A stretch of 64,000 nucleotides of DNA, from the NCBI GenBank assembly GCA_038087875.1, contig CM075988.1, positions 8,434,001 through 8,498,000 on the forward strand. The letters run 5' to 3'. The notes beneath the pieces are model-generated. The model saw only the letters and a list, made by a program, of their open reading frames with translations, was not told the origin of the DNA and did no database searches. Below, piece by piece: positions 797 through 57,736 of the stretch. The position numbers and the translations under genes are program-made. The stretch comes from Malacoraja senta (Eukaryota). The number at the start of each line of letters is the position of its first letter. Positions within the stretch are counted from its first letter, which is position 1.

Positions 797-3700
797 GAGC
801 AGAGAGACAGAGGGGTGTAAAATGAGGGTAGAAGCAATAGGTAGCAAGGTGAAAAGTAAAAGTGGCAGGCAGACAAATCCAGGGTAAAAATCAAAAAGGG
901 ACACTTTTCAACATAATTGTATAAGGGGTAAGAGCGTTGTAAAAACAAGCCTGAAGGCTTTGTGTCTTAATGCAAGGAGCATTCGTAATAAGGTAGATGA
1001 GTTGAATGTGCAGATAGCTATTAATGATTATGATATGGTTGGGATCACGGAGACATGGCTCGAGGGTGACCAAGGCTTGGAGCTGAACATCCAGGAATAT
1101 TCAATATTCAGGAGGGATAGACAGAAAGGAAAAGGAGGTGGGGTAGCGTTGCTGGTTAGAGAGGAGATTAACGCAATAGAAAGGAAGGACATTAGCTTGG
1201 AGGATGTGCAATCGATATGGGTAGAGCTGCAAAACACTAAGGGGCAGAAAACGTTAGTAGGTGTTGTGTACAGGCCTCCTAACAGTAGTAGTGGAGTTGG
1301 GGATGGCATCAAACAGGAAATTAGAAATGCGTGCAACAAAGGTAAAACAGTTATAATGGGTTACTTCAATCTACATATAGATTGGGTGAATCAAATTGGC
1401 AGGGGTGCTGAGGAAGAGGATTTCTTGGAATGTTTGCGGGATAGTTTTCTAAACCAACATGTAGAGGAACCAACGAGAGAGCAGGCTATTCTAGACTGGG
1501 TATTGAGTAATGAGGAAGGGTTAGTTAGCAGTCTTGTTGTGCGTGGCCCCTTGGGCAAGAGTGACCATAATATGGTTGAGTTCTTCATTAGGATGGAGAG
1601 TGACATTGTTAATTCAGAAACAAGGGTTCTGAACTTAAAGAAAGGTAACTTTGAGGGTAGGAGACGTGAATTGGCCAAGATTGACTGGCAATTGATTCTT
1701 AATGGGTTGACGGTTGATATACAATGGAAGGCATTTAAAGACTGCATGGATGAACTACAACAATTGTTCATCCCAGTTTGGTAAAAGAATAAATCAGGGA
1801 AGGTATTGCATCCGTGGATAACAAGGGAAATCAGGGATAGTATCAAAACAAAAGATGAAGCGTACAAATTAGCCAGAAAAAGCAGCCTACCAGAGGACTG
1901 GGAGAAATTCAGAGTCCAGCAGAGGAGGACAAAGGGCTTAATTAGGAAAGGGAAAATAGATTATGAAAGAAAACTGGCAGAGAACAAAAAAACTGACTGC
2001 AAAAGTTTTTATAGATATGTGAAGAGAAAAAGATTAGTTAAAACAAATGTAGGTCCCTTGCAGTCAGAAACAGGTGAATTGATCATGGGGAACAAGGACA
2101 TGGCAGACCAATTGAATAACTACTTTGGTTCTGTCTTCAATAAGGAAGACATAAATAATCTGCCGGAAATAGCAGGGGACCGCAGGTCAAATGAGATGGA
2201 GGAACTGAGTGAAATCCAGGTTAGCCGGGAAGTGGTGTTAGGTAAATTGAATGGATTAAAGGCCGATAAATCCCCAGGGCCAGATAGGCTGCATCCTAGA
2301 GTACTTAAGGAAGTAGCCCCAGAAATAGTGGATGCATTGGTGATAATTTTTCAAAACTCCTTAGATTCTGGATTAGTTCCTGAGGATTGGAGGGTAGCTA
2401 ATGTAACCCCACTTTTTAGAAAGGGAGGGAGAGAGAAAATGGGAAATTACAGACCAGTTAGTCTAACATCGGTAGTGGGAAAACTGCTAGTCAGTTATTA
2501 AAGATGGGATAGCAGCACATTTGTAAAGTCGTGAAATCATTGGACAAAGTCAGCATGGATTTACGAAAGGTAAATCATGTCTGATGAATCTTACAGAATT
2601 TTTCGAGGATGTAACTAGTAGAGTGGATAAGGGAGAACCAGTGGATATGTTATATCTGGACTTTCAGAAGGCTTTTGACAAGGTCCCACATAAGAGATTA
2701 GTATACAAACTTAAAGCACACGGTATTGGGGGTTCAGTATTGATGTGGATAGAGAACTGGCTGGCAAACATGAAGCAAAGAGTAGGAGTAAACGGGTCCT
2801 TTTCAGAATGGCAGGCAGTGACTAGTGGGGTACCGCAAGGCTCAGTGCTTGGACCCCAGCTATTTACAATATATATTAATGATTTGGACGAGGGAATTGA
2901 ATGCAACATCTCCAAGTTTGCGGATGACACAAAGCTGGGGGGCAGTGTTAGCTGTGAGGAGGATGCTAGGAAGCTGCAAGGTGACTTGGATAGGCTGGGT
3001 GAGTGGGCAAATGCATGGCAGATGCAGTATAATGTGGATAAATGTGAGGTTATCCACTTTGGTGGCAAAAACAGGAAAGTAGACTATTATCTGAATGGTG
3101 GCCGATTAGGAAAAGGGGAGATGCAACGAGACCTGGGTGTCATGGTACACCAGTCATTGAAAGTAGGCATGCAGGTGCAGCAGGCAGTGAAGAAAGCGAA
3201 TGGTATGTTAGCATTCATAGCAAAAGGATTTGAGTATAGGAGCAGGGAGGTTCTACTGCAGTTGTACAGGGTCTTGGTGAGACCACACCTGGAGTATTGC
3301 GTACAGTTTTGGTCTCCAAATCTGAGGAAAGACATTCTTGCCATAGGGGGAGTACAGAGAAGGTTCACCAGACTGATTCCTGGGATGTCAGGACTTTCAT
3401 ATGAAGAAAGACTGGATAGACTCGGCTTGTACTCGCTAGAATTTAGAAGATTGAGGTGGGATCTTATAGAAACTTACAAAATTCTTAAGGGGTTGGACAG
3501 GCTAGATGCAGGAAGATTGTTCCCGATGTTGGGGAAGTCCAGGACAAGGGGTTACAGTTTAAGGATAAAGGGGAAATCTTTTAGGACCGAGATGAGAAAA
3601 ACATTTTTCACACAGAGAGTGGTGAATTTCTGGAACTGCCTGTAGTTGAGGCCAGTTCATTGGCTATATTTAAGAGGGAGTTAGATGTGGCCCTTGTGGC

Positions 3701-3847: not shown

Positions 3848-4290
3848 GTTCGTGGGTATTGTGGTTCTATTTGTACTTGAGAGGGTGCAGAGGAGATTCA
3901 GTGGGATTTGGCTTGGGGGTGAAATGTCCGAGAAGAGACTAGATAGGCTGGGTTTGTTTTCGTTGGAGTTATGGAGGGTGAGAGGAGATAGAAATATGCA
4001 TTTATATATGCATAATCAGCATAGATAATAAGAAACCTTTCAACAGCGTGAACAATATAACAACGTGTAATCTTCTCAAAAACATCTGGGTTTGCAATAT
4101 AATTTATTTTATTATGGTTTTTGTTGAGAGTTTGGGCATCAATTTGTGCTTCATTTACTTTTCCAGGATACCCAACAGTCAGGAAACTCGGTCATGTTTA
4201 GCCGGCTTTCCCAGTGTTAGTCAATTGAAAATGATTTCCTGCTGCAGTGAAATGAGGAAATGACCATTTCCAGATCATGTCACATACTCT

Positions 4291-4436
4291 TGGGGTTGGA
4301 GATTGCAACCTTCACGTGGTCCGCCCTGTTTCGACGAATGCCATCAACCCGGTGTGCGCAATCAAATAAGATCAAATAGAACAAGTTGTCCTACAACTTT
4401 AGGCTGTGCACGCCATACGCAAGAAGAAGAAGAAGG
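4291..4436 (+). mobile_element. Short (~145 bp) ribozyme-headed non-autonomous retroposon, copy 1
   Basis: 10-bp TSD CACATACTCT (4281-4290 / 4437-4446); 3' end GCACGCCATACGC(AAG)n; colinear end-to-end with the copy at 45852-45990. Confidence 0.9.
4292..4345 (+). ncRNA. Predicted minimal HDV-like self-cleaving ribozyme (copy 1)
   Basis: P1 GGGGTTG/CCGCCCT (1 mismatch), P2 GATTGCA/TGCCATC (1 mismatch), P3 ACC/GGT, L3 TTCACGT, J4/2 CGAA; folded by eye. Confidence 0.7.
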
Positions 4437-4461
4437 CACATACTCTGGAAACAGACACTCA

Positions 4462-7009: not shown

Positions 7010-7365
7010 CTGTAAGGATAGAACGTAGACCAGTGCCGCACAAGAACAGCCCCTACGGCCGAACATGATGCCAAGACCAATTGTTATCTGCCTGCACATA
7101 ATTCATGACACAACCTGCCATGTACAAAGCCATGCTGACTGTACCAAATTAACTCATTCTCTTGCAAAGGGGAGTAAATCCTAAACCGAAAAATCTTCTC
7201 CAATAGATTTCCTACCACTGATGTGAGTATCACCAGCTGAGAATTCCTTGGATTCTCTCTATTTCCTTTCTTAAATAAAGGAACAATAGTTGCTACTCTC
7301 CTGTCCTCTGGGACCTCACCTGTGGCCAGAGAAGATGCAAAGATCTTTGTCACAGTTCCTGCAAT
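7010..7365 (-). mobile_element. CR1 RT fragment plus 3' tail
   Basis: Minus-strand ORF FASSLATGEVPED..VATIVPLFKKG...SQHGFV. Confidence 0.8.
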
Positions 7366-7834
7366 CTAAAGCAACTCAGTGGGTCAGGCTGCATCTCTGG
7401 AGGACAAGAATGGGCGACGTTTTGTGTCGCGACCACTCTTCAGATTCATTGTGGTGGAGGGTAGAAGGCTGGAAAAGAGATGGAGGCGGGACAAAGTCTG
7501 GCAATTGATAGGTGGATAGAGGTGAGGAGGGTGTAGGATGGAACCGAATATAAACGCAAAATGCAGGAGTGACTCAGCGGGTCAGGCAGCATCTCCGGAG
7601 AAAAGGAATAGGTGACATTCCTCCAGCATTTTGTGTCTATCACAGGTGAGGAGGGAAGTTGAAATCTTCCTCTAATGCCACCCTAATATTTTTACAGGTG
7701 AGGATGGGTCCAAAGGCTGGAGATGAAAAGGAGACAAAATGAGACAAAAAGGAGATAAGGAGACAAAAAGGTATCGGGTAAAGAGAGAAAAGTCAGGGGG
7801 AGAGATAATGGTGAAAAGGGCAGGGTTAGGGAAG

Positions 7835-17543: not shown

Positions 17544-18284
17544 GATAGGGGGTGGGGAGAAGAAAGGAAAAAAGGAAAAAGGCGGAGGAGGAGCCGAGGG
17601 CTGGGGGAGGGGAGGAGACAACCAGATGGCTGATGAAGGGGAGGGGACAGCAAGGGCTAGCAGAATTGGGAGAATTCAATGTTCAAGCCCCCAGGATGTA
17701 GACTGCCCAAGCGGAATATGAGGTGCATTTCCTCCAATTTACGGTGTTGCTCGCTGTGGCCATGGAGGAGACCCAGGACAGAGAGGTCAGATACGGAATG
17801 GGAGGGGGAGTTGAAGTGCTGAGCCACCGGGAGTTCAGGTTGGTTATTGCGGACCGACCGGAGGTGTTCGGCGAAACGATCGCCAAGCCTCCGCTTGGTC
17901 TCACCCGCTTGGTCTCCGCTCGGTGAGACCAAGCGGAGGCTTGGCGATCGTTTCGCCAAACACCTCCGGTCGGTCCGCAATAGCCAACCTGAACTCCCGG
18001 TGGCTCAGCACTTCAACTCCCCCTCCCATTCCGTATCTGACCTCTCTGTCCTGGGTCTCCTCCATGGCCACAGCGAGCAACACCGTAAATTGGAGGAAAT
18101 GCACCTCATATTCCGCTTGGGCAGTCTACATCCTGGGGGCATGAACATTGAATTCTCCCAATTCTGCTAGCCCTTGCTATCCCCTCCCCTTCATCAGCCA
18201 TCTGGTTGTCTCCTCCCCTTCCCCAGCCCTCGGGCTCCTCCTCCGCCTTTTTCCTTTTTTCCTTTCTTCTCCCCACCCCCTATC

Positions 18285-18319: not shown

Positions 18320-18518
18320 TATTTCCTTCGCTCCATAGATGCTGCTGCACCCGCTGAGTTTCTCCAGCATTTTTGTGTACCTATCACTTCAAGATTCAAG
18401 ATTCAAGAGAGTTTATTGTCATGTGTCCCAGATAGGACAATGACCTTCAGCACAACAGAATATTGTAGGCATAAATAAATACAGAACAGATCAGTGTGTC
18501 CATACACCATTGAATATA

Positions 18519-20132
18519 CAGTGGCTTGCAAAAGTTTTCATACCACTTGAACTTTTCCACATTTTGTCACGTTACAACCACAAACGTAAATGTATTTTAT
18601 TGGGATTTTATGTGATAGACCAATACAAAGTGGTGCATAATTGTGAAGTGGAAGGAAAATGATACATGATTTTCAAATTTTTTTACAAATAAAAACTGAA
18701 AAGTGTCGCGTGCAAAAGTATTCAGCCCCCTGAGTCAATACTTTGTAGAACCACCTTTCGCTGCAATTACAGCTGCAAGTCTTTTGGGGTATGTCTCTAC
18801 CAGCTTTGCATATCTTGAGACTGAAATTTTTGCCCATTCTTCTTTGCAAAATAGCTCAAGCTCAGTCAGATTGGATGGAGAGCGTCTGTGAACAGCAATT
18901 TTCAAGTCTTGCCAGAGATTCTCAATTGGATTTAGGTCTGGACTTTGACTGGGCCATTCTAACACATGAATATGCTTTGATCTAAACCATTCCATTGTAG
19001 CTCTAGCTGTATGTTTAGGGTTGTTGTCCTGCTGGAAGGTGAACCTCCGCCCCAGTCTCAAGTCTTTTGCAGACTCTAACAGATTTTCTTCCAAGATTGC
19101 CCTGTATTTGGCTCCATCCATCTTCCCATCAACTCTGACCAGCTTCCCTGTCCCTGCTGAAGAAAAGCATCCCCACAGCATGATGCTGCCACCACCATGT
19201 TTCACAGTGGGGATGGTGTGTTCAGGGTGATGTGCAGTGTTAGGTTCCGCCACACATAGCGTTTTGCATTTAGGCCGAAAACGTCAATTTTGGTCTCATC
19301 TGAACAGAGCACCGGTCTCCACATGTTTGCTGTGTGCCCCACATGGCTTGTGGCAAACTGCAAACGGGACTTCTCATGGCTTTTTTTCAACAATGGCTTT
19401 CTTCTTGCCACTCTTCCATAAAGGCCCGATTTGTGGAGTGCACAATTAATAGTTGTCCTGTGGACAGATTCTCCCACCTGAGCTGTGGATCTCTGCAGCT
19501 CCTCCAGAGTTACCATGGGCCTCTTGGCTGCTTCTCTGATCAATGCTCTCCTTGCCCGGCCTGTCAGTTTAGGTGGACGGCCATGTCTTGGTAGGTTTGC
19601 AGTTGTGCCATACTCTTTCCATTTTCGGATGATGGATTGAACAGTGCTCCGTGAGATGTTCAAAGCTTGGGATATTTTTTTATAACCTAACCCTGCTTTA
19701 AACTTCTCCACAACTTTATCCCTGACCTGTCTGATGTGTTCCTTGGGCTTCCATGATGCTGTTTGTTCACTAATATTCTCTAACAAACCTCTGAGGCCTT
19801 CACAGAACAGCTGTATTTATACTGAGATTAGATTACACACAAGTGGACTCTATTTACTAATTAGGTGACTTCTGAAGGCAATTGGTTGCACTGGATTTTA
19901 TTTAGGGGTATCAGAGTAAAGGGGGCTGAATACTTTTGCACGCGACACTTTTCAGTTTTTATTTGTAAAAAAATTTGAAAACCATGTATCATTTTCCTTC
20001 CACTTCACAATTATGCGCCACTTTGTGTTGGTCTATCACATAAAATCCCAATAAAATACATTTACGTTTGTGGTTGTAACGTGACAAAATGTGGAAAAGT
20101 TCAAGGGATATGAATACTTTTGCAAGCCACTG
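18519..20132 (-). mobile_element. Full-length Tc1 DNA transposon (IR/DR type)
   Basis: ~212-bp TIRs (18519-18730, 19921-20132) beginning CAGTGGCTTGCAAAAGT with an inner repeat TGCAAAAGTATTCAGCCCC; TA TSDs; 1614 bp. Confidence 0.96.
18735..19754 (-). pseudogene. Tc1 transposase (DD34E), frameshifted
   Basis: HTH region KPKEH..VRDKVVEKFK, GRPPK, ARRKPLL; catalytic SDETK, QQDN(34 aa)E in SPDLNPIENLW; frameshifts just after the ATG (19752-19754) and near 19250. Confidence 0.93.
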
Positions 20133-20957
20133 TATATATACACACATAAATAAGCATTTGGTATAGAAACAAATAACTGCAGATGCTGGTTTTATACCAA
20201 AGATAGACACAACGTGCTGGAGTAACTCAGCGGGTCATGCTGCCTGACCCGCTGAGTTACTCCAGCACTTTGGTTCCATCTATCACTTGCCAGGCTTTGT
20301 CCTGCTCCTACCTCTATTCCAACTGTATCTGCCTGACTACAATCAGTCTGGAGAAGTGTCCCGACCCGGAACGTCGCCTATCCATGCCCTCCCGAGATGC
20401 TGCCTGATTGGCTCAGTTACTCCAGCATTTTAGTTCAATCCAAATAGTTATACACAATCAGGAACTCCTCAGAAATCCTGACATGCCCTCAGGAAATCCC
20501 TGCAAATAAATACGGATGCATCCTCGGTGACTCTGTGCGAATGTGACATACTTTCCAAAGCAGAACCTCTCCAAAGGTTAAAGATAGACACATATTGATA
20601 GAGTAACTCAACGGGTCCGGCCGCATCTCTGGAGAGAAACGTTTCTGGTGACGTTTCGGGTCGGGACCGTTATTCCCAAACTTCCCAGTACTCTCAGTGG
20701 ACCCCTGAAGTTATAGAGCCAGGTTGCGGTTAAAAAGAATGGAATGCCTCGGAAGGATAGCAAAACCAGGCAAACTCCCAGCAAACTCCCAATAAGAAGG
20801 GTCTCAATCCAAAACGTCACCTATTCTGTTTCTCCAAAGATGCTGGCTGTCCCGTTGAGTTACTCTAGCATTTTGTGTCTATCTTTGAAACTACCGATAG
20901 ATACTTCTACACACCACCAAGGAGTTTCAGCCAACAATGACACATAATCCCAGAAGA

Positions 20958-45730: not shown

Positions 45731-45851
45731 CAGTACCCTGTGTCTAATTGAAGGCCTTCTTTAGGTAAATCTGTTGGGTAAGTAATCTACCTGGAGACTA
45801 GACTATATGCATTGGGTTCAGGTCAGATCTGGCAGTGAATAAGATAGTCAC

Positions 45852-45990
45852 CGGGGTGGAAGACTGCAACCTTCACGTGGTCCGCCCTGTTTCAACGAAT
45901 GCAATCAACCTGGCGTGCACAATCAAATAAGATCAAATAGAACAAGCTGTCCCACAACTTTAGGCTGTGCACGCCATACGCAAGAAGAAG
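45852..45990 (+). mobile_element. Short (~140 bp) ribozyme-headed non-autonomous retroposon, copy 2
   Basis: TSD AAGATAGTCAC (45841-45851 / 45991-46001); 3' end GCACGCCATACGC(AAG)n; same 5' start as copy 1. Confidence 0.9.
45853..45906 (+). ncRNA. Predicted minimal HDV-like self-cleaving ribozyme (copy 2)
   Basis: P1 GGGGTGG(45853-59)/CCGCCCT(45882-88) with G1.U wobble; P2 GACTGCA/TGCAATC; P3 ACC/GGT; L3 TTCACGT; candidate catalytic C45896 in CGAA; essentially no P4. Confidence 0.75.
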
Positions 45991-46240
45991 AAGATAGTCA
46001 CTAAGTCAGGTTTGAACGTCATACGTTCTGTCAGAAGGCTTGCTTCATAATAATTGACCCAAACTGGACCATAGCTTTTATCACCCTTAAAATGGTACAA
46101 CAGGTCCAAGTTTCATCCTTTTAAAATGTCCACCAGTGGAGTTCGCTTGAGGTGCTCAATGGCATACTCTTATTCCTATTTATTTTGTTGTAGTCTTTGA
46201 GAGCTAGTCCATGGCAAGAATATGAAAAGGTAACAGCTCC

Positions 46241-47682: not shown

Positions 47683-49050
47683 AATATCAGTGGTGGGGAA
47701 GATGTACATCTGCGCACATTTGGATAGCAGTAACAGGATCGGTCCGAGTCAGCATGGATTTACGAAGGGGAAATCATGCTTGACTAATCTTCTGGAAATT
47801 TTTTGAGGATGTAACTAGGAAAATGGACAAGGGGAGAACCAGTGCATGCAGTGTACCTGGACTTTCAGAAAGCATTTGATAAGGTCCCACATAGGAGATT
47901 AGTGGGCAAAATTAGGGCACATGTTATTGGGGGTAGAGTGCTGACATGGATAGAGAAGTGGTTGGCAGACAGGAAACAAAGAGTAGGGATTAACGGGTCC
48001 CTTTCAGAATGGCAGGCAGTGACTAGTGGGGTACCGCAAGGCTCCGGTGCTGGGACCACAGCTATTTACAATATACATCAATGATTTGGATGAAAGGATT
48101 CAAAGTAACATTAGCAAATTTGCAGATGACACAAAGCTGGGTGGCAGTGTGAACTGTGAGGAGGATGCTATGAGAATGCAGGGTGACTTGGACAGGTTGG
48201 GGGAGTGGGCAGATGCATGGCAGATGAAGTTTAATGTGGATAAATGTGAGGTTATCCACTTTGGTATCAAAACAGGAAGGCAGATTACTATCTAAATGGC
48301 GTCAAATTGGGAAAAGGGGGAAGTATAACGGGATCTGGGGTCCTTGTTCATCAGTCGATGAAAGTAAGCATACAGGTAGAGCAGGCAGTGAAGAAAGCGA
48401 ATGGCATATTGGCCTTTATAACAAGAGGAGTCGAGTATAGGAGCAAAGAGGTCCTTCTGCAGTTGTACAGAGCCCTAGTGAGACCACACCTGGAGTATTG
48501 TGTGCAGTTTTGGTCCCCTAATTTGAGGGAGGATATTCTTGCTATTGAGGGAGTGCAGCGTAGGTTTACAAGGTCAATTCCCGTGATGGCGGGACTGTCA
48601 TATGCTGAGAGAATGGAGCGGCTGGGCTCGTACACTCTGGAGTTTAGAAGGATGAGAGGGTATCTTATTGAAACATAAAAGATTGTTAAGGGTTTGGACA
48701 CGCTAGAGGCAGGAAACATGTTCCTGATGTTGGGGGAGTCCAGAACCAGGGGCCACAGTTTAAGAATAAGGGGTAAGCCATTTAGAACAGAGACGAGGAA
48801 ACACTTTTTCTCACAGAGAGTTGTGAGTCTGTGGAATTCTCTGCCTCAGAGGGTGGTGGAGGCTGGTTCTCTGGATACTTTCAAGAGAGAGCTAGATAGG
48901 GCTCTTAAAGATAGCGGAGTCAGGGGATATGGGGAGAAGGCAGGAACGGGGTACTGATTGGGGATAATCAGCCATGATCACATTGAATGGCGGTGCTGGC
49001 TCGAAGGGCCGAATGGCCTACTCCTGCACCTATTGTCTATTGTCTATTGT
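47683..49050 (+). mobile_element. CR1 LINE, 5'-truncated RT pseudogene + 3' UTR, inserted into a minus-strand SINE (47624-47680 + 49049-49265)
   Basis: Frameshifted ORFs QHGFTKGKSCLTNL, YLDFQKAFDKVPH, FADD, RPHLEYCVQFWSP; (TATTGTC)n tail. Confidence 0.93.
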
Positions 49051-53900: not shown

Positions 53901-55196
53901 CTTTCATATCTCCCACTTCTTCTGTCTCAGTCCCTCCTATTCTCTGTTCCTGTCGGTATCTCACTCCCTTTGCGCTTCCTACATTTCCTCTTCTACCTTT
54001 TGTATTCTCTGCGGAGATGACTGTCAGTTCCAATTGCTCTGATAATTGCAAACAGAGGACAAAATGCCCCCTTTCCTCCAACAGAGGGAAGTCCATAGAC
54101 CCAGCGCTATCTGCCACAAAATTAGTACTCAAATGAGCACACAGGACTGTTTCCCCACACAAATAAAATCATGGTTTAAAATCACTGCCTCTCAACCCGA
54201 TTGTATTTTTTGTCTCTCCGACTCCAGTCACCTTATTCATCCTTGCTAGTTAAAACATGAAACAGGGCTGCCTCCTCATTAGAATACTGTGCGTGTGGTG
54301 TTTTGTGAGGGATGGCAGGGGTTCGAGAGGGGGGGGGGGGTAGGGGGAAGAGGGAGGTGGGTGAAAACAGAAGTAAAGGGGATGGTGGCTCAACCTCCCC
54401 AGCAGGGCTCGCTGGTATTGGCTGCTTCCCGCAAACTGCCCGCCGGTGGGAAGCTAATTGTTTCCACGGCGACAGAAGCGACCCCAAATGCTCGCAGGTG
54501 GGATAACACAGAATAAATAATATCCACTCTTTACACCATGTAATTAGCACCTTAACAATGCCACCAGTTAATGCTCTTTCTTGGAAGGTTCGAGCCAGCA
54601 CAGTCATTGTCAACAGTGACTGGAGCTCATGTGGGCTGCATAGAGACAGGGAATATTCCTCCCTGGACAAGTGTTAATGGTGCTGTCACATCTCATTAAG
54701 AAAATGATCCATTTTCTTTGAAACATTACCTAATTATCAGGAATATTTACCTAATGCATTCAGGTGTGGATGTTTTTCAGGCCTGTGTTTAGTCAGGTCA
54801 GTTATTCCCCTTCCCCCCCCCCCCCCCCCCCAACCTTTTTCTCTTCATTCTATCATAACCCCGTCATTGCTGTAAGGAGACTTGTGCTTGTGCTAAATAA
54901 AAGTTGAGTCCAATTGCTCTTCCTCTACTCACTGTAGGATTGATAATCCCTCCATAAGGGTAGCTGATCCATTTCTACCATAGGGCTTTCACAGCATACA
55001 TTATTGATATCAATAAACGAAAGGGTCAAGGCTAATGCAGGAGCACTTGTCAGAATTCTGCAGCACAGGACAGAGGCCAATCTGCCCATTATATCTGTTC
55101 TAACTCCTAGCTTTCCAATTAACTCTTCTGTCCTTCTCTTTCCCTGTGTAAGATGGTCTTGCAACATTTCGATTCTTCAAGCAATTCTTGAATCTC

Positions 55197-55410
55197 GACA
55201 CAAACTGCTGGAGTAACTCAGCGGGACAGACAGCATCTCTGGAGAGAATGAATGGGTGACGTTTTGGGTTGAGACCCTTCTTCTGAAGAAGGATCTCGAC
55301 CCGAAACATCACCCATTTATTCTATCCAGTGACGCTGCCTAACCCACTGAGTTACTCCAGCAGTTTGTGTCTATCTTCAGTGTAAACCAGCAACTACAGT
55401 TCCTCCCTAT
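55197..55410. mobile_element. PLE pLTR inverted pair
   Basis: Inverted arms meet at CCCTTCTTCTGAAGAAGG. Confidence 0.8.
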
Positions 55411-57736
55411 ACATTCCATTCTCTTTTGTGGGTCGATGGCTGGATGAGCTCTCTTTCCATCCCTGTTAGACACTTCTACACAATGCCAGCTGAATAAAAT
55501 TGCCTACAGGTGCAAAAACATATCAAGAGGTGCCACCATGTTACAAGCTATGGAAGGGATGGTGTATGGCTGATTTACCAAAAGGAGATATTGAATAGTC
55601 TCTGTTCTAGGAGTAAGTGGTCAGCGCTGTATATATCAGTAAAATCACTTGATCACAAAATGCTGGAGTAACTCAGCAGGACAGGCAGCGTCTCTGGAGA
55701 GAAGGAATGGGTGACATTTTGGGTCAATTCCCATCCTCAGGGTCACCCGTTCCTTCTCTCCAGAGATGTTGCCTGTCCTGCTGAGTTACTCCAGCATTTT
55801 GTGTCTATCTTTGGTGTAAACCAGCATCTGCAGTTCCGTCCTACAGATCACGTGATCATCTATTTACATGTTGCAGCTCAGGTTTGCTCATTGTAACTCA
55901 TTCATAGAATCATTACAAAATAAAATGAGCTCAATCACCCCCACTTCTCCCTCCATTGGCCCAACAATTATATACCATTAAGCACTTGCACTTTAAAACT
56001 ATCTCCAGATCATTACCACTTCTGCATAAACATTTCGATATCTTTTGGTCACTACATTGCTTTGAAGACTTGCATTGTTTAAGTTAATGTGCTGTGATTA
56101 GAATTCCATCAGGAGGAAACTCTGACCAATACTCCTGGAGAACTCATCACAATGTCTATGTCACAGTAGCATCTAGCACCATTTTGCCTCCTTTTCATCT
56201 CTCGCCTGTGTCACTTACTCCACACAACTGTCAAGTAAAGCCCCCGTCACTTGTATCCACCTATCATTTGTCAGGCTTTGTCCTGCATTCCCCACCACTT
56301 ATTTATAGCTTTCTCCCCCACTGCAATCAGTCGGAAGCATCGCCTGTTTATTCCCGCCACAGATGCTGCCTGACCCATTGAGTTCCTCCAACACATTGTG
56401 TTTTACCAATAATCTATTTGTGCGCACTTTCTCACCCCGACTCAACATCACCCTGCAACAATTCTGCTACATCTGTTTTACAATCCATTATGTTTCTCTT
56501 TTCCAGTGTTTAGGATGTCACTGCCCTGAATGCCACAGTACTAAGTACTTTTCTAAAAGTCTCAGCTATTTTCTCTCCAACTCTCCCTCTCAGCAGCGCC
56601 TGAAAACCTAATTAGCTCCACTTTGAGTCGCAGCTAAAGTAATGACAGAAATGCAGCAACAATCAATACCTTAAACATTGGTCCACCACCTACAGTGCTT
56701 CCCATGCTGGGAAAAGAATGGGGTGGACCTTTGCGCACAAAGGTTAGTGATCCCTGCAAGATTCCAAAGAGGAATAGACAGGGATTGTGCCGGCACAGTG
56801 ATTTCTGATCAATGTTCCTGAAATGTGACACTGATGGGCAAAGCTCAACAGTGGGAACCCAAATCCATAAATGTTACCCTGATGAGCTCAAGCCTTGCTA
56901 AACCTTTACTGTCCCCCTCAGCACACCCACCAATGTACACTAAATATTTTTTATTTCCATTATTCAACCATTGGCAATCATGTTTTCAGCTCCATCAACT
57001 CTGAAATTCCCTCCATGAATATGCCTCTGCATCTCTTAAGGTGCTCCTGAAAACTGGATCTTTTCAATAAACTTTTGATATGGCCTTACTGTATATGTTT
57101 AATTTTGAATGGTGGAGCTTCTATGGAATGGTCTGTAACATTACTGCTATGTTATCAATGCAGGCACTTGGATTGGACCTTCAATTCTCCAAGACATCAG
57201 GCAGCTAGCTCATAATTGATAAGGACTTACAAACACCATTCTGGTGAATGACCACAAGGCCTGAACTATAAAAGTTGGCCTCTGCTCTTAATCCACAAAC
57301 CCTTTACATTATTCAAAAAATGGTAGACATATTCAAAACACAAGCCAACAGTCAGCCTGGACTAGGGTTAGGTTTTGGTTCTTTCCATGTGTTGGCTTGC
57401 TTTTCCATGTGTATTTGACGAGTAGACTCCAAATTCTTAGAGCCATACCAAAAGTCAAGGGGGGGTCCCATGTGTGGTGGTATATTAAAACAAGACACAC
57501 AAAGTGATGGAATAACTCAGCAGGCCAGGCAGCTTCTCTGGAGAACAGGAATAGGTGACATTTCAGGTCGGGACCCAAACTATCATCATCCAGGTTCTCC
57601 AGAGATGCTGCCTGACCCACTGCTACTCCAGCATTTTGTGTCTTTATGTGTAAACAACCATCTGTTGGTCCTTGTTGCTGCTTTTATAATATAATTGTTC
57701 AAAGACGCTTTGAGATCACCTTTGAATTGGTTACTC

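Follow-up and report, generated by a model that had tools for sequence, protein, structure and literature searches.

A high-copy, ~140-nt retroposon of Malacoraja senta headed by a predicted P4-less HDV-like ribozyme

The window analysed here is a stretch of 64,000 nucleotides from Malacoraja senta (assembly GCA_038087875.1, contig CM075988.1, positions 8,434,001 to 8,498,000, forward strand). It is rich in SINE-like repeats and also contains CR1-like LINE and Tc1 fragments. A nearly full CR1-like LINE ORF2 (endonuclease and RT), interrupted by a few stops, occupies 888-3645, with a second 3' fragment at 48250-48678, and the nearest Atlas clusters of the CR1-like protein are mostly chordate. 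The repeat families suggest a cartilaginous fish as host. A 358-nt inverted repeat at 17548-18279 (93% complementary, 16 nt between arms) is followed at 18514-20137 by a Tc1/mariner element whose terminal inverted repeats are 218 nt long (97%) and whose transposase, on the minus strand, is frameshifted. The SINE-like family D1-D4, D9 and D10 is spread across the window on both strands, often as fold-back or head-to-head pieces (for example 7351-7643, 20190-20278 and 55181-55411). A Pfam scan of 294 of the 359 unmasked stop-to-stop frames of at least 45 aa (without six ORFs in overlapping frames, and with two variants of one ORF in addition) found no host exon, with only LINE endonuclease and Tc1 transposase domains above the curated cut-off. 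A weak match to the cobra-type toxin family at 3982-4260 (E 0.005; 17.4 bits against a cut-off of 25.3) is most likely noise.

Our analysis showed that the same window holds two independent insertions of one ~140-nt non-coding retroposon (Table 1), which align over 142 nt at 93% identity (E 1e-57, pairwise comparison). Both combine a target-site duplication with a simple-repeat 3' tail and the absence of an ORF. The preliminary description of this DNA had taken the feature at 4281-4446 for a second insertion of the same element, with a duplication of its own and an (AAG)n end. Our analysis confirmed it as such: the duplications differ between the copies in sequence and length, the flanks are unrelated (best similarity E 0.017, 500 nt per side), and the tail is present as claimed. 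The start had been placed 1 nt before GGGG, which did not hold, the extra base being T in copy 1 and C in copy 2. This base is thus not element sequence, and the family starts at the first G (G1). It is likely an untemplated addition by the reverse transcriptase, and such additions at 5' junctions are described in PMC11331408. Searches of the window for a third copy or a lone element end returned only the two known matches each (chance means 0.00 and 0.05).

Table 1. Coordinates of the two insertions and of their predicted parts, numbered from the first letter of the window
Feature	Copy	Position	Strand	Remarks
Left target-site duplication	1	4281-4290	+	10 bp, CACATACTCT
Single base T	1	4291	+	separates duplication from G1
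Element	1	4292-4436	+	GGGG at 4292; tail (AAG)5+G at 4421-4436
Ribozyme fold (predicted)	1	4292-4345	+	minimal, P4-less, HDV-like
P1	1	4292-4298/4321-4327	+	7 bp, G1.U wobble, mismatch at 4297
J1/2	1	4299-4300	+	2 nt
P2	1	4301-4307/4339-4345	+	7 bp, mismatch at 4342
P3	1	4308-4310/4318-4320	+	3 bp
L3	1	4311-4317	+	TTCACGT
P1.1	1	C4313-G4328	+	one pair
L4	1	4329-4334	+	6 nt
Catalytic-C position	1	4335	+	
J4/2	1	4335-4338	+	CGAA
Long hairpin	1	4350-4415	+	11-bp stem 4350-4360/4405-4415, A-rich spacer inside
Inner hairpin	1	4383-4389/4393-4399	+	7 bp, enclosed by the 11-bp stem
3' module common with a longer family	1	4393-4436	+	X1 and X3: loose ends ahead of 45954
Stop codon TAG	1	4400-4402	+	followed by short 3' UTR and (AAG)5 tail
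Right target-site duplication	1	4437-4446	+	10 bp
Left target-site duplication	2	45841-45851	+	11 bp, AAGATAGTCAC
Single base C	2	45852	+	before GGGG
Element	2	45853-45990	+	GGGG at 45853
Ribozyme fold (predicted)	2	45853-45906	+	P1 intact; P2 mismatch 45864; L4 change 45894
Right target-site duplication	2	45991-46001	+	first letters overlap tail of copy 2

The first 54 nt of the element are predicted to fit an HDV-like double pseudoknot without the P4 helix. P1, P2 and P3 nest with a G1.Y wobble, each pair being formed in at least one copy and the family majority completing the set. The core bases, namely U, C and G of L3, the catalytic C and C-R-R-A of J4/2, are present and identical in both copies. 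The descriptor of PMC6326823 comprises G1-Y, these three L3 bases and C-R-R-A of J4/2, and all its fixed bases occur in the element except one P1.1 pair. Here P1.1 is a single C-G pair followed by U.U, and PMC4908430 allows "one or two base-pairs" in HDV-like ribozymes. The absence of P4 and the 6 nt separating the P1.1 G from the catalytic C correspond to the minimal form. With a relaxed HDV-like descriptor the two copies were the sole sites in the window on both strands, against a chance expectation per 64 kb of 0.02 with a short L4 and 0.11 with an L4 of up to 30 nt (100 trials on random sequence of matching composition). The proposed fold pairs 69 of 74 cells (93.2%) versus 27-41% in slid controls, a score for a structure derived from the same two sequences that were scored. 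As described earlier, P3, L3, the 3' strand of P1 and CGAA are identical in the copies and the P2 mismatches lie on opposite strands; the majority base restores P2 (T at 45864 in 99%, three DNA runs). Copy 1 carries an additional P1 mismatch at 4297 that the preliminary description lacked.

Several observations weigh on the fold. Both copies in the window are imperfect, copy 1 with mismatches in P1 and P2 and copy 2 with one in P2, and no compensatory change was seen between them, two sequences being uninformative in this respect. The minimum-energy fold of copy 1 is an alternative to the proposed pseudoknot, which such folding cannot represent (z +1.3 and -0.2). Rfam returned nothing at the gathering score for either copy and no match to copy 1 even at E up to 10; the best for copy 2 was a weak HDV match to RF02682 (12.7 bits versus a cut-off of 44, E 6.3), a covariance model that includes the P4 region. 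J1/2 is only 2 nt long, which counts against activity; in PMC4908430, little activity was seen when this spacer was 1 nt, in a ribozyme whose P2 was longer. The P1.1 G could also mispair with the catalytic C, just U-UUCG-A lying between them, a misfold designed against in PMC6326823. The limits on J1/2 and the protective role of the fold are taken from PMC4908430, PMC11331408 and PMC6326823. The string GT-TTCG-AC of copy 1, initially read as a P4 remnant, was rejected as such: its hairpin scores +1.7 kcal/mol and needs G4328, the P1.1 partner of L3, and C4335, the catalytic-C position, and so it cannot be P4 in an active fold.

The element or part of it was found in 20 of the 23 public runs listed, from 12 studies and five organisms. 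Two of these runs may come from the source of the window. DNA runs X1 (a possible source) and X3 and X5 (other organisms), representing three species, and one raw single-cell RNA run, X22, were aligned to 45750-46090, whereas run X20, with 15% of the words, was left out. The depth in this interval is confined to the element. Among the best-supported sites, the top 5'-side loose-end position is 45853 in all three DNA runs (210, 177 and 213 contigs, respectively); this ranking gives the mode of the 5' ends, and listed pieces also start at 45852-45857. The consensus agreement of these loose ends is near 0.35, and the flanks are thus unrelated. On the 3' side, at least 865, 668 and 894 contigs exit into unrelated flanks. 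The matching 5' ends, from which a defined end had been proposed, were thereby borne out family-wide, together with the RNA reads described below; upstream sequence in common among copies was looked for, and none appeared. The proposed high copy number likewise stood, with a rough depth ratio giving 66,000-99,000 copies, a figure calculated from rounded plateau depths with four pieces of outlying depth left out and flagged by the tool as no true copy number. Two copies per 64 kb is of the same order as this estimate for a genome of a few gigabases.

The variation within the family fits the predicted fold. In all three species P1, P2, P3, L3 and the catalytic C are unbroken in the majority sequence. 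The commonest change in P1 converts U5.G32 to U-A, which keeps the pair, and makes up 19-21% of the DNA depth. Variation is greatest at the base following the catalytic C, with G>T at 14-17% and G>A at 10-17%; the catalytic C itself is altered in about 5%. We also asked about selection on the catalytic C in the RNA run and set the result aside: C>T is at 3.2% in sense versus 7.1% in antisense reads (p 2e-4, a statistic on non-independent reads), but a CpG site in P1 shows the reverse (p 0.013).

Of 17.6 million records of the RNA run, which are about 1% of that run, 4,462 fall on the element, about 4:1 in favour of sense. At 45853, 1,836 reads have a loose 5' part, and the depth at 45860 is 1,812 on the plus and 412 on the minus strand. 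The consensus of the loose part (agreement only 0.75), which we take to be the template-switch oligo, is joined directly to G1. The GGG of this oligo is additional to the GGGG of the element, lying outside it, which differs from the overlap that strand invasion would give. These junction reads thus place the start of short sense RNAs at the predicted cleavage site, in a single run and by a count that favours short cDNAs; the read-start table for the run lists no pile-up. With RNAs starting at G1, the element likely cuts itself out of host transcripts before being copied by a LINE. Runs of A follow 45983 (329 reads) and 45976 (188 reads), which may reflect oligo-dT priming on the tail. According to PMC6280765, template switching takes place whether or not an end is capped, and false ends can arise from strand invasion or from stalling of the RT.

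The 3' half of the element forms a long hairpin (element positions 59-124) of marked stability (z -3.4 and -3.6; in each copy, 0 of 200 shuffles as stable). A longer family has only the last 40 nt in common with the element, in 102 contigs of X1 and 69 of X3. These contigs partly have upstream sequence in common, with a 30-letter loose-end consensus at an agreement of about 0.5. Read by hand, the frame of the longer family ends Leu-Asp-Leu-Gln-Leu-stop (TAG at 45961-45963), which we take to be a C-terminal motif and used toward the Vingi assignment below. The distance from the stop codon to the tail is only about 20 nt. By this sequence evidence, the longer family is the probable 3' end of a partner LINE. 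Positions 4350-4389 are, with interruptions, the reverse complement of the initial 23 nt of the 3' module (4393-4415), and the join between the middle and this presumably LINE-derived module is in the inner-hairpin loop. The element could have arisen through 5'-3' pairing over a long range in the parent LINE or through a fold-back when the deletion occurred.

The element itself contains no Pol III boxes (the best A box has 3 mismatches), TTTT, tRNA head or ORF; it thus lacks the A and B boxes and the tRNA-, 5S- or 7SL-type head that characterise a Pol III SINE. ARAGORN called no tRNA in the window at 90% of its threshold or above. An antisense tRNA origin was considered for a minus-strand call at 80-85% of threshold and rejected as chance (29 of 200 random stretches). 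A sigma-70 promoter scan, of no relevance to a eukaryote, found nothing. A search for the partner LINE in viral contigs, with the 5' core as query and with the 3'-end pattern, gave 0 matches, and the sole metagenome-contig match (L001), a 19-mer in coding DNA of bacteria, was dismissed as chance. Querying the PDB with the CR1-like RT of the window returned R2, L1 and group II intron enzymes and no Vingi entry.

Bipartite elements have been reported only from RTE, Ingi, Vingi and R2 (Kojima 2018). Vingi and Ingi LINEs have a single ORF with APE-RT, with RNase H present in Ingi and absent in Vingi (PMC13708176). The four Vingi 5' ends printed in the PMC5786205 supplement, compared by eye, start with GGGG and have an HDV fold with GT after P1; three of the four have L3 TTC[A/T]CGT and CGAA as in the element, and a one-pair P1.1 can be read in both. 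In this mostly-RTE supplement, these L3 words occur four times, always in Vingi rows. In contrast, all four printed ends have a P4 helix and other letters in P1, P2 and P3, and the likeness is a by-eye signature, of which sequence identity to a named Vingi family is not part. The internal-deletion layout recalls the non-autonomous Vingi-1_EE family of hedgehog.

The closest functional parallels are NARTc and RIME of trypanosomes (from L1Tc/ingi), short non-coding 5'+3' derivatives of Ingi-group LINEs with dispersed insertions and an HDV-like ribozyme cleaving 5' of nucleotide +1 (PMC3383444, PMC4035085). They differ in their 77-nt Pr77 with P4 and a poly(A) tail, whereas the element has a 54-nt predicted fold without P4, (AAG)n and an animal host. 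The R2 SIDEs of Drosophila (PMC3414825) likewise consist of a ribozyme and 3' end only, with the RNA released from a host co-transcript, and are SIDEs rather than SINEs because R2-type elements are not Pol III-transcribed; they are about 0.5 kb or more, specific to rDNA and of low copy number, unlike the 140-nt, dispersed and very abundant element. For NARTc/RIME and the R2 SIDEs, cleavage was shown in vitro, and Pr77 is also a promoter (PMC3383444, PMC4035085, PMC3414825).

By size and letters, the head most resembles the theta ribozymes of Caudoviricetes (PMC10879173), which at 54-55 nt also lack P4 and have a 2-nt J1/2 (1-3 nt in the class) and a 7-bp P2. Their P3/L3 ACC TTCACGT GGT, with 410 occurrences in supplementary file 5 of that paper, and L4 TTTCGA are identical in the element. 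However, all theta rows compared have a two-pair P1.1 (GA), whereas the element has G then TTTCGA without that A; theta ribozymes are of phage origin and often directly behind a tRNA, whereas the element is an animal repeat with no upstream tRNA. A search with the theta form gave five phage loci, four of them directly behind a tRNA. In these the element's P3, L3 and L4 letters are flanked by P1/P2 arms that differ completely in sequence and pair completely or almost completely. These loci (L002-L006) are theta-type ribozymes behind tRNA-His or tRNA-Gln, with L002, L004 and L006 between two tRNAs. The exact ribozyme variant of the element had 0 matches in viral contigs. With the same size, P3, L3 and L4 but a one-pair P1.1 and no phage match, the head is, in its predicted design, minimal HDV-like and not a theta ribozyme. 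Horizontal transfer from phage was considered but found no support: the letters in common belong to a core under constraint and to a UUCG loop, the viral contigs lack the exact variant, and the P1.1 is Vingi-like. A Vingi ribozyme that converged on this form by losing P4 is the simpler account.

We favour, at a rough probability of 0.62, the reading that the element is a high-copy ~140-nt retroposon produced by internal deletion of a Vingi/Ingi-type LINE, which cuts itself from read-through transcripts and is copied by the protein of that LINE. This reading starts from observed features, namely the duplications, the tail, the fixed 5' boundary, the sense RNAs at G1, the 3' hairpin and a sequence that agrees with the HDV core. 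Host RNA polymerase II would read through a genomic copy, and the 54-nt pseudoknot would then fold and cleave 5' of G1; the folded structure would shield the resulting 5'-OH end. The partner LINE protein would bind the 3' hairpin and (AAG)n tail and prime reverse transcription at a genomic nick; the enzyme would run off at G1, add one untemplated base, and second-strand synthesis would complete the 10-11-bp duplication. Since reverse transcription would run to G1, each new copy would carry the whole ribozyme and need no promoter. The pairing of the 5' half with the last 23 nt of the LINE may be the reason why Ingi/Vingi-type LINEs yield internally deleted derivatives. That the lineage carries tens of thousands of active theta-like minimal HDV ribozymes, maturing a ~135-nt uncapped RNA in vivo, is a bolder claim, to which we give slightly less than even odds.

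This reading and its three rivals are not fully exclusive. The head might be an internal RNA polymerase II promoter giving a capped start, with the ribozyme fold a relic or a reserve, much as in the dual-function Pr77 system of L1Tc/NARTc. The related Ingi/L1Tc clade has such a combination of promoter and ribozyme in Pr77 (PMC3383444), capped ends are also substrates for template switching (PMC6280765), Kojima 2018 assumes Pol II transcription of bipartite LINEs, and since a DNA-rare subfamily supplies about 20-28% of the sense reads, a few loci may dominate. Yet we consider this unlikely: the RNA start and the predicted cleavage site agree to the nucleotide, and the majority junction lacks an extra untemplated G, although capped ends show that G in only a minority of reads (PMC6280765). 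Moreover, each of the two genomic copies has exactly four Gs preceded by a pyrimidine at -1, and hence no cap-derived G.

An artefact of the library, with the oligo invading at GGGG or the RT falling off the pseudoknot, the fixed genomic 5' end reflecting no more than the copying of one short master, and the ribozyme dead, would exploit the G-runs known as strand-invasion sites (PMC6280765), and the junction count is indeed biased, the oligo being seen in reads of short cDNAs of one RNA run. However, the oligo GGG sits on top of the four Gs of the element, RT stalling is expected inside or 3' of the fold and not at its 5'-most base, and a master copy would still need a means of making RNA end at G1. 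As P1, P2, P3, L3 and the catalytic C are also intact in the majority bases of three species, we regard an artefact as very improbable. Finally, the ribozyme mechanism may be right with the LINE being of the RTE or another clade rather than Vingi/Ingi. Most known bipartite elements come from RTE, several RTE families have HDV-like ribozymes, and microsatellite tails are typical of RTE-derived SINEs, with GAT-repeat tails in the PMC5786205 supplement. On the other side, L3 and J1/4 match the Vingi and not the RTE rows of that supplement, the string AAGAAGAAG is absent from it (though line breaks could hide some occurrences), and the tail begins only about 20 nt after the stop codon; a non-Vingi/Ingi partner seems quite unlikely, and the Vingi/Ingi-type LINE remains our preferred source.

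Among the matches listed in searches of the full-text literature, no account of the element family appeared, nor one of an animal retroposon carrying a ribozyme without P4. The family may already be deposited in Repbase or Dfam, and Vingi-type ribozymes may already have been described. Vingi-type ribozymes of sea urchin and amphioxus are reported to have been assayed. The excerpts of PMC5753468, PMC4494074, PMC3391268, PMC3747384, PMC5499810 and PMC13708176 contain nothing on the element. The general strategy is known, with NARTc, RIME and the R2 SIDEs being the same kind of element, and this limits the surprise. Nevertheless, the origin and function of minimal HDV-like ribozymes are stated to be open in PMC10879173, where nearly 99% of them come from tailed phages and the eukaryote set consists of human, mouse and protists. 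Descriptions of this smallest type have so far come almost entirely from gut phages. A P4-less ribozyme heading an abundant animal retroposon would, if true, extend the class to animals with a clear job and, if active in vivo, would be the first eukaryotic home and function for minimal HDV ribozymes. Active copies would also seed co-transcriptional cut sites in host introns, and their abundance makes the purging of sense-strand intronic ribozymes directly testable. Thousands of naturally mutated copies, read in RNA with their own 5' end, would amount to a ready-made in vivo mutational scan. Further, a 140-nt unit of ribozyme and 3' hairpin is close to a minimal template for the Vingi-type gene-insertion systems of PMC13708176.

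Two minor observations concern related forms. A subfamily differs at element positions 58-76 and 125 (window 45910-45928 and 45977): its 5' stem arm is changed, two nucleotides are missing at 45923, and the sequence just ahead of the A-run ends differently. It makes up <3% of the DNA depth but about 17-28% of the sense RNA reads and may be a young active subfamily or reflect a few strong loci. In the alligator SINE2-1_AMi of the PMC5786205 supplement, an HDV-like fold can still be made out by eye in the Vingi-derived middle, which follows a tRNA head.
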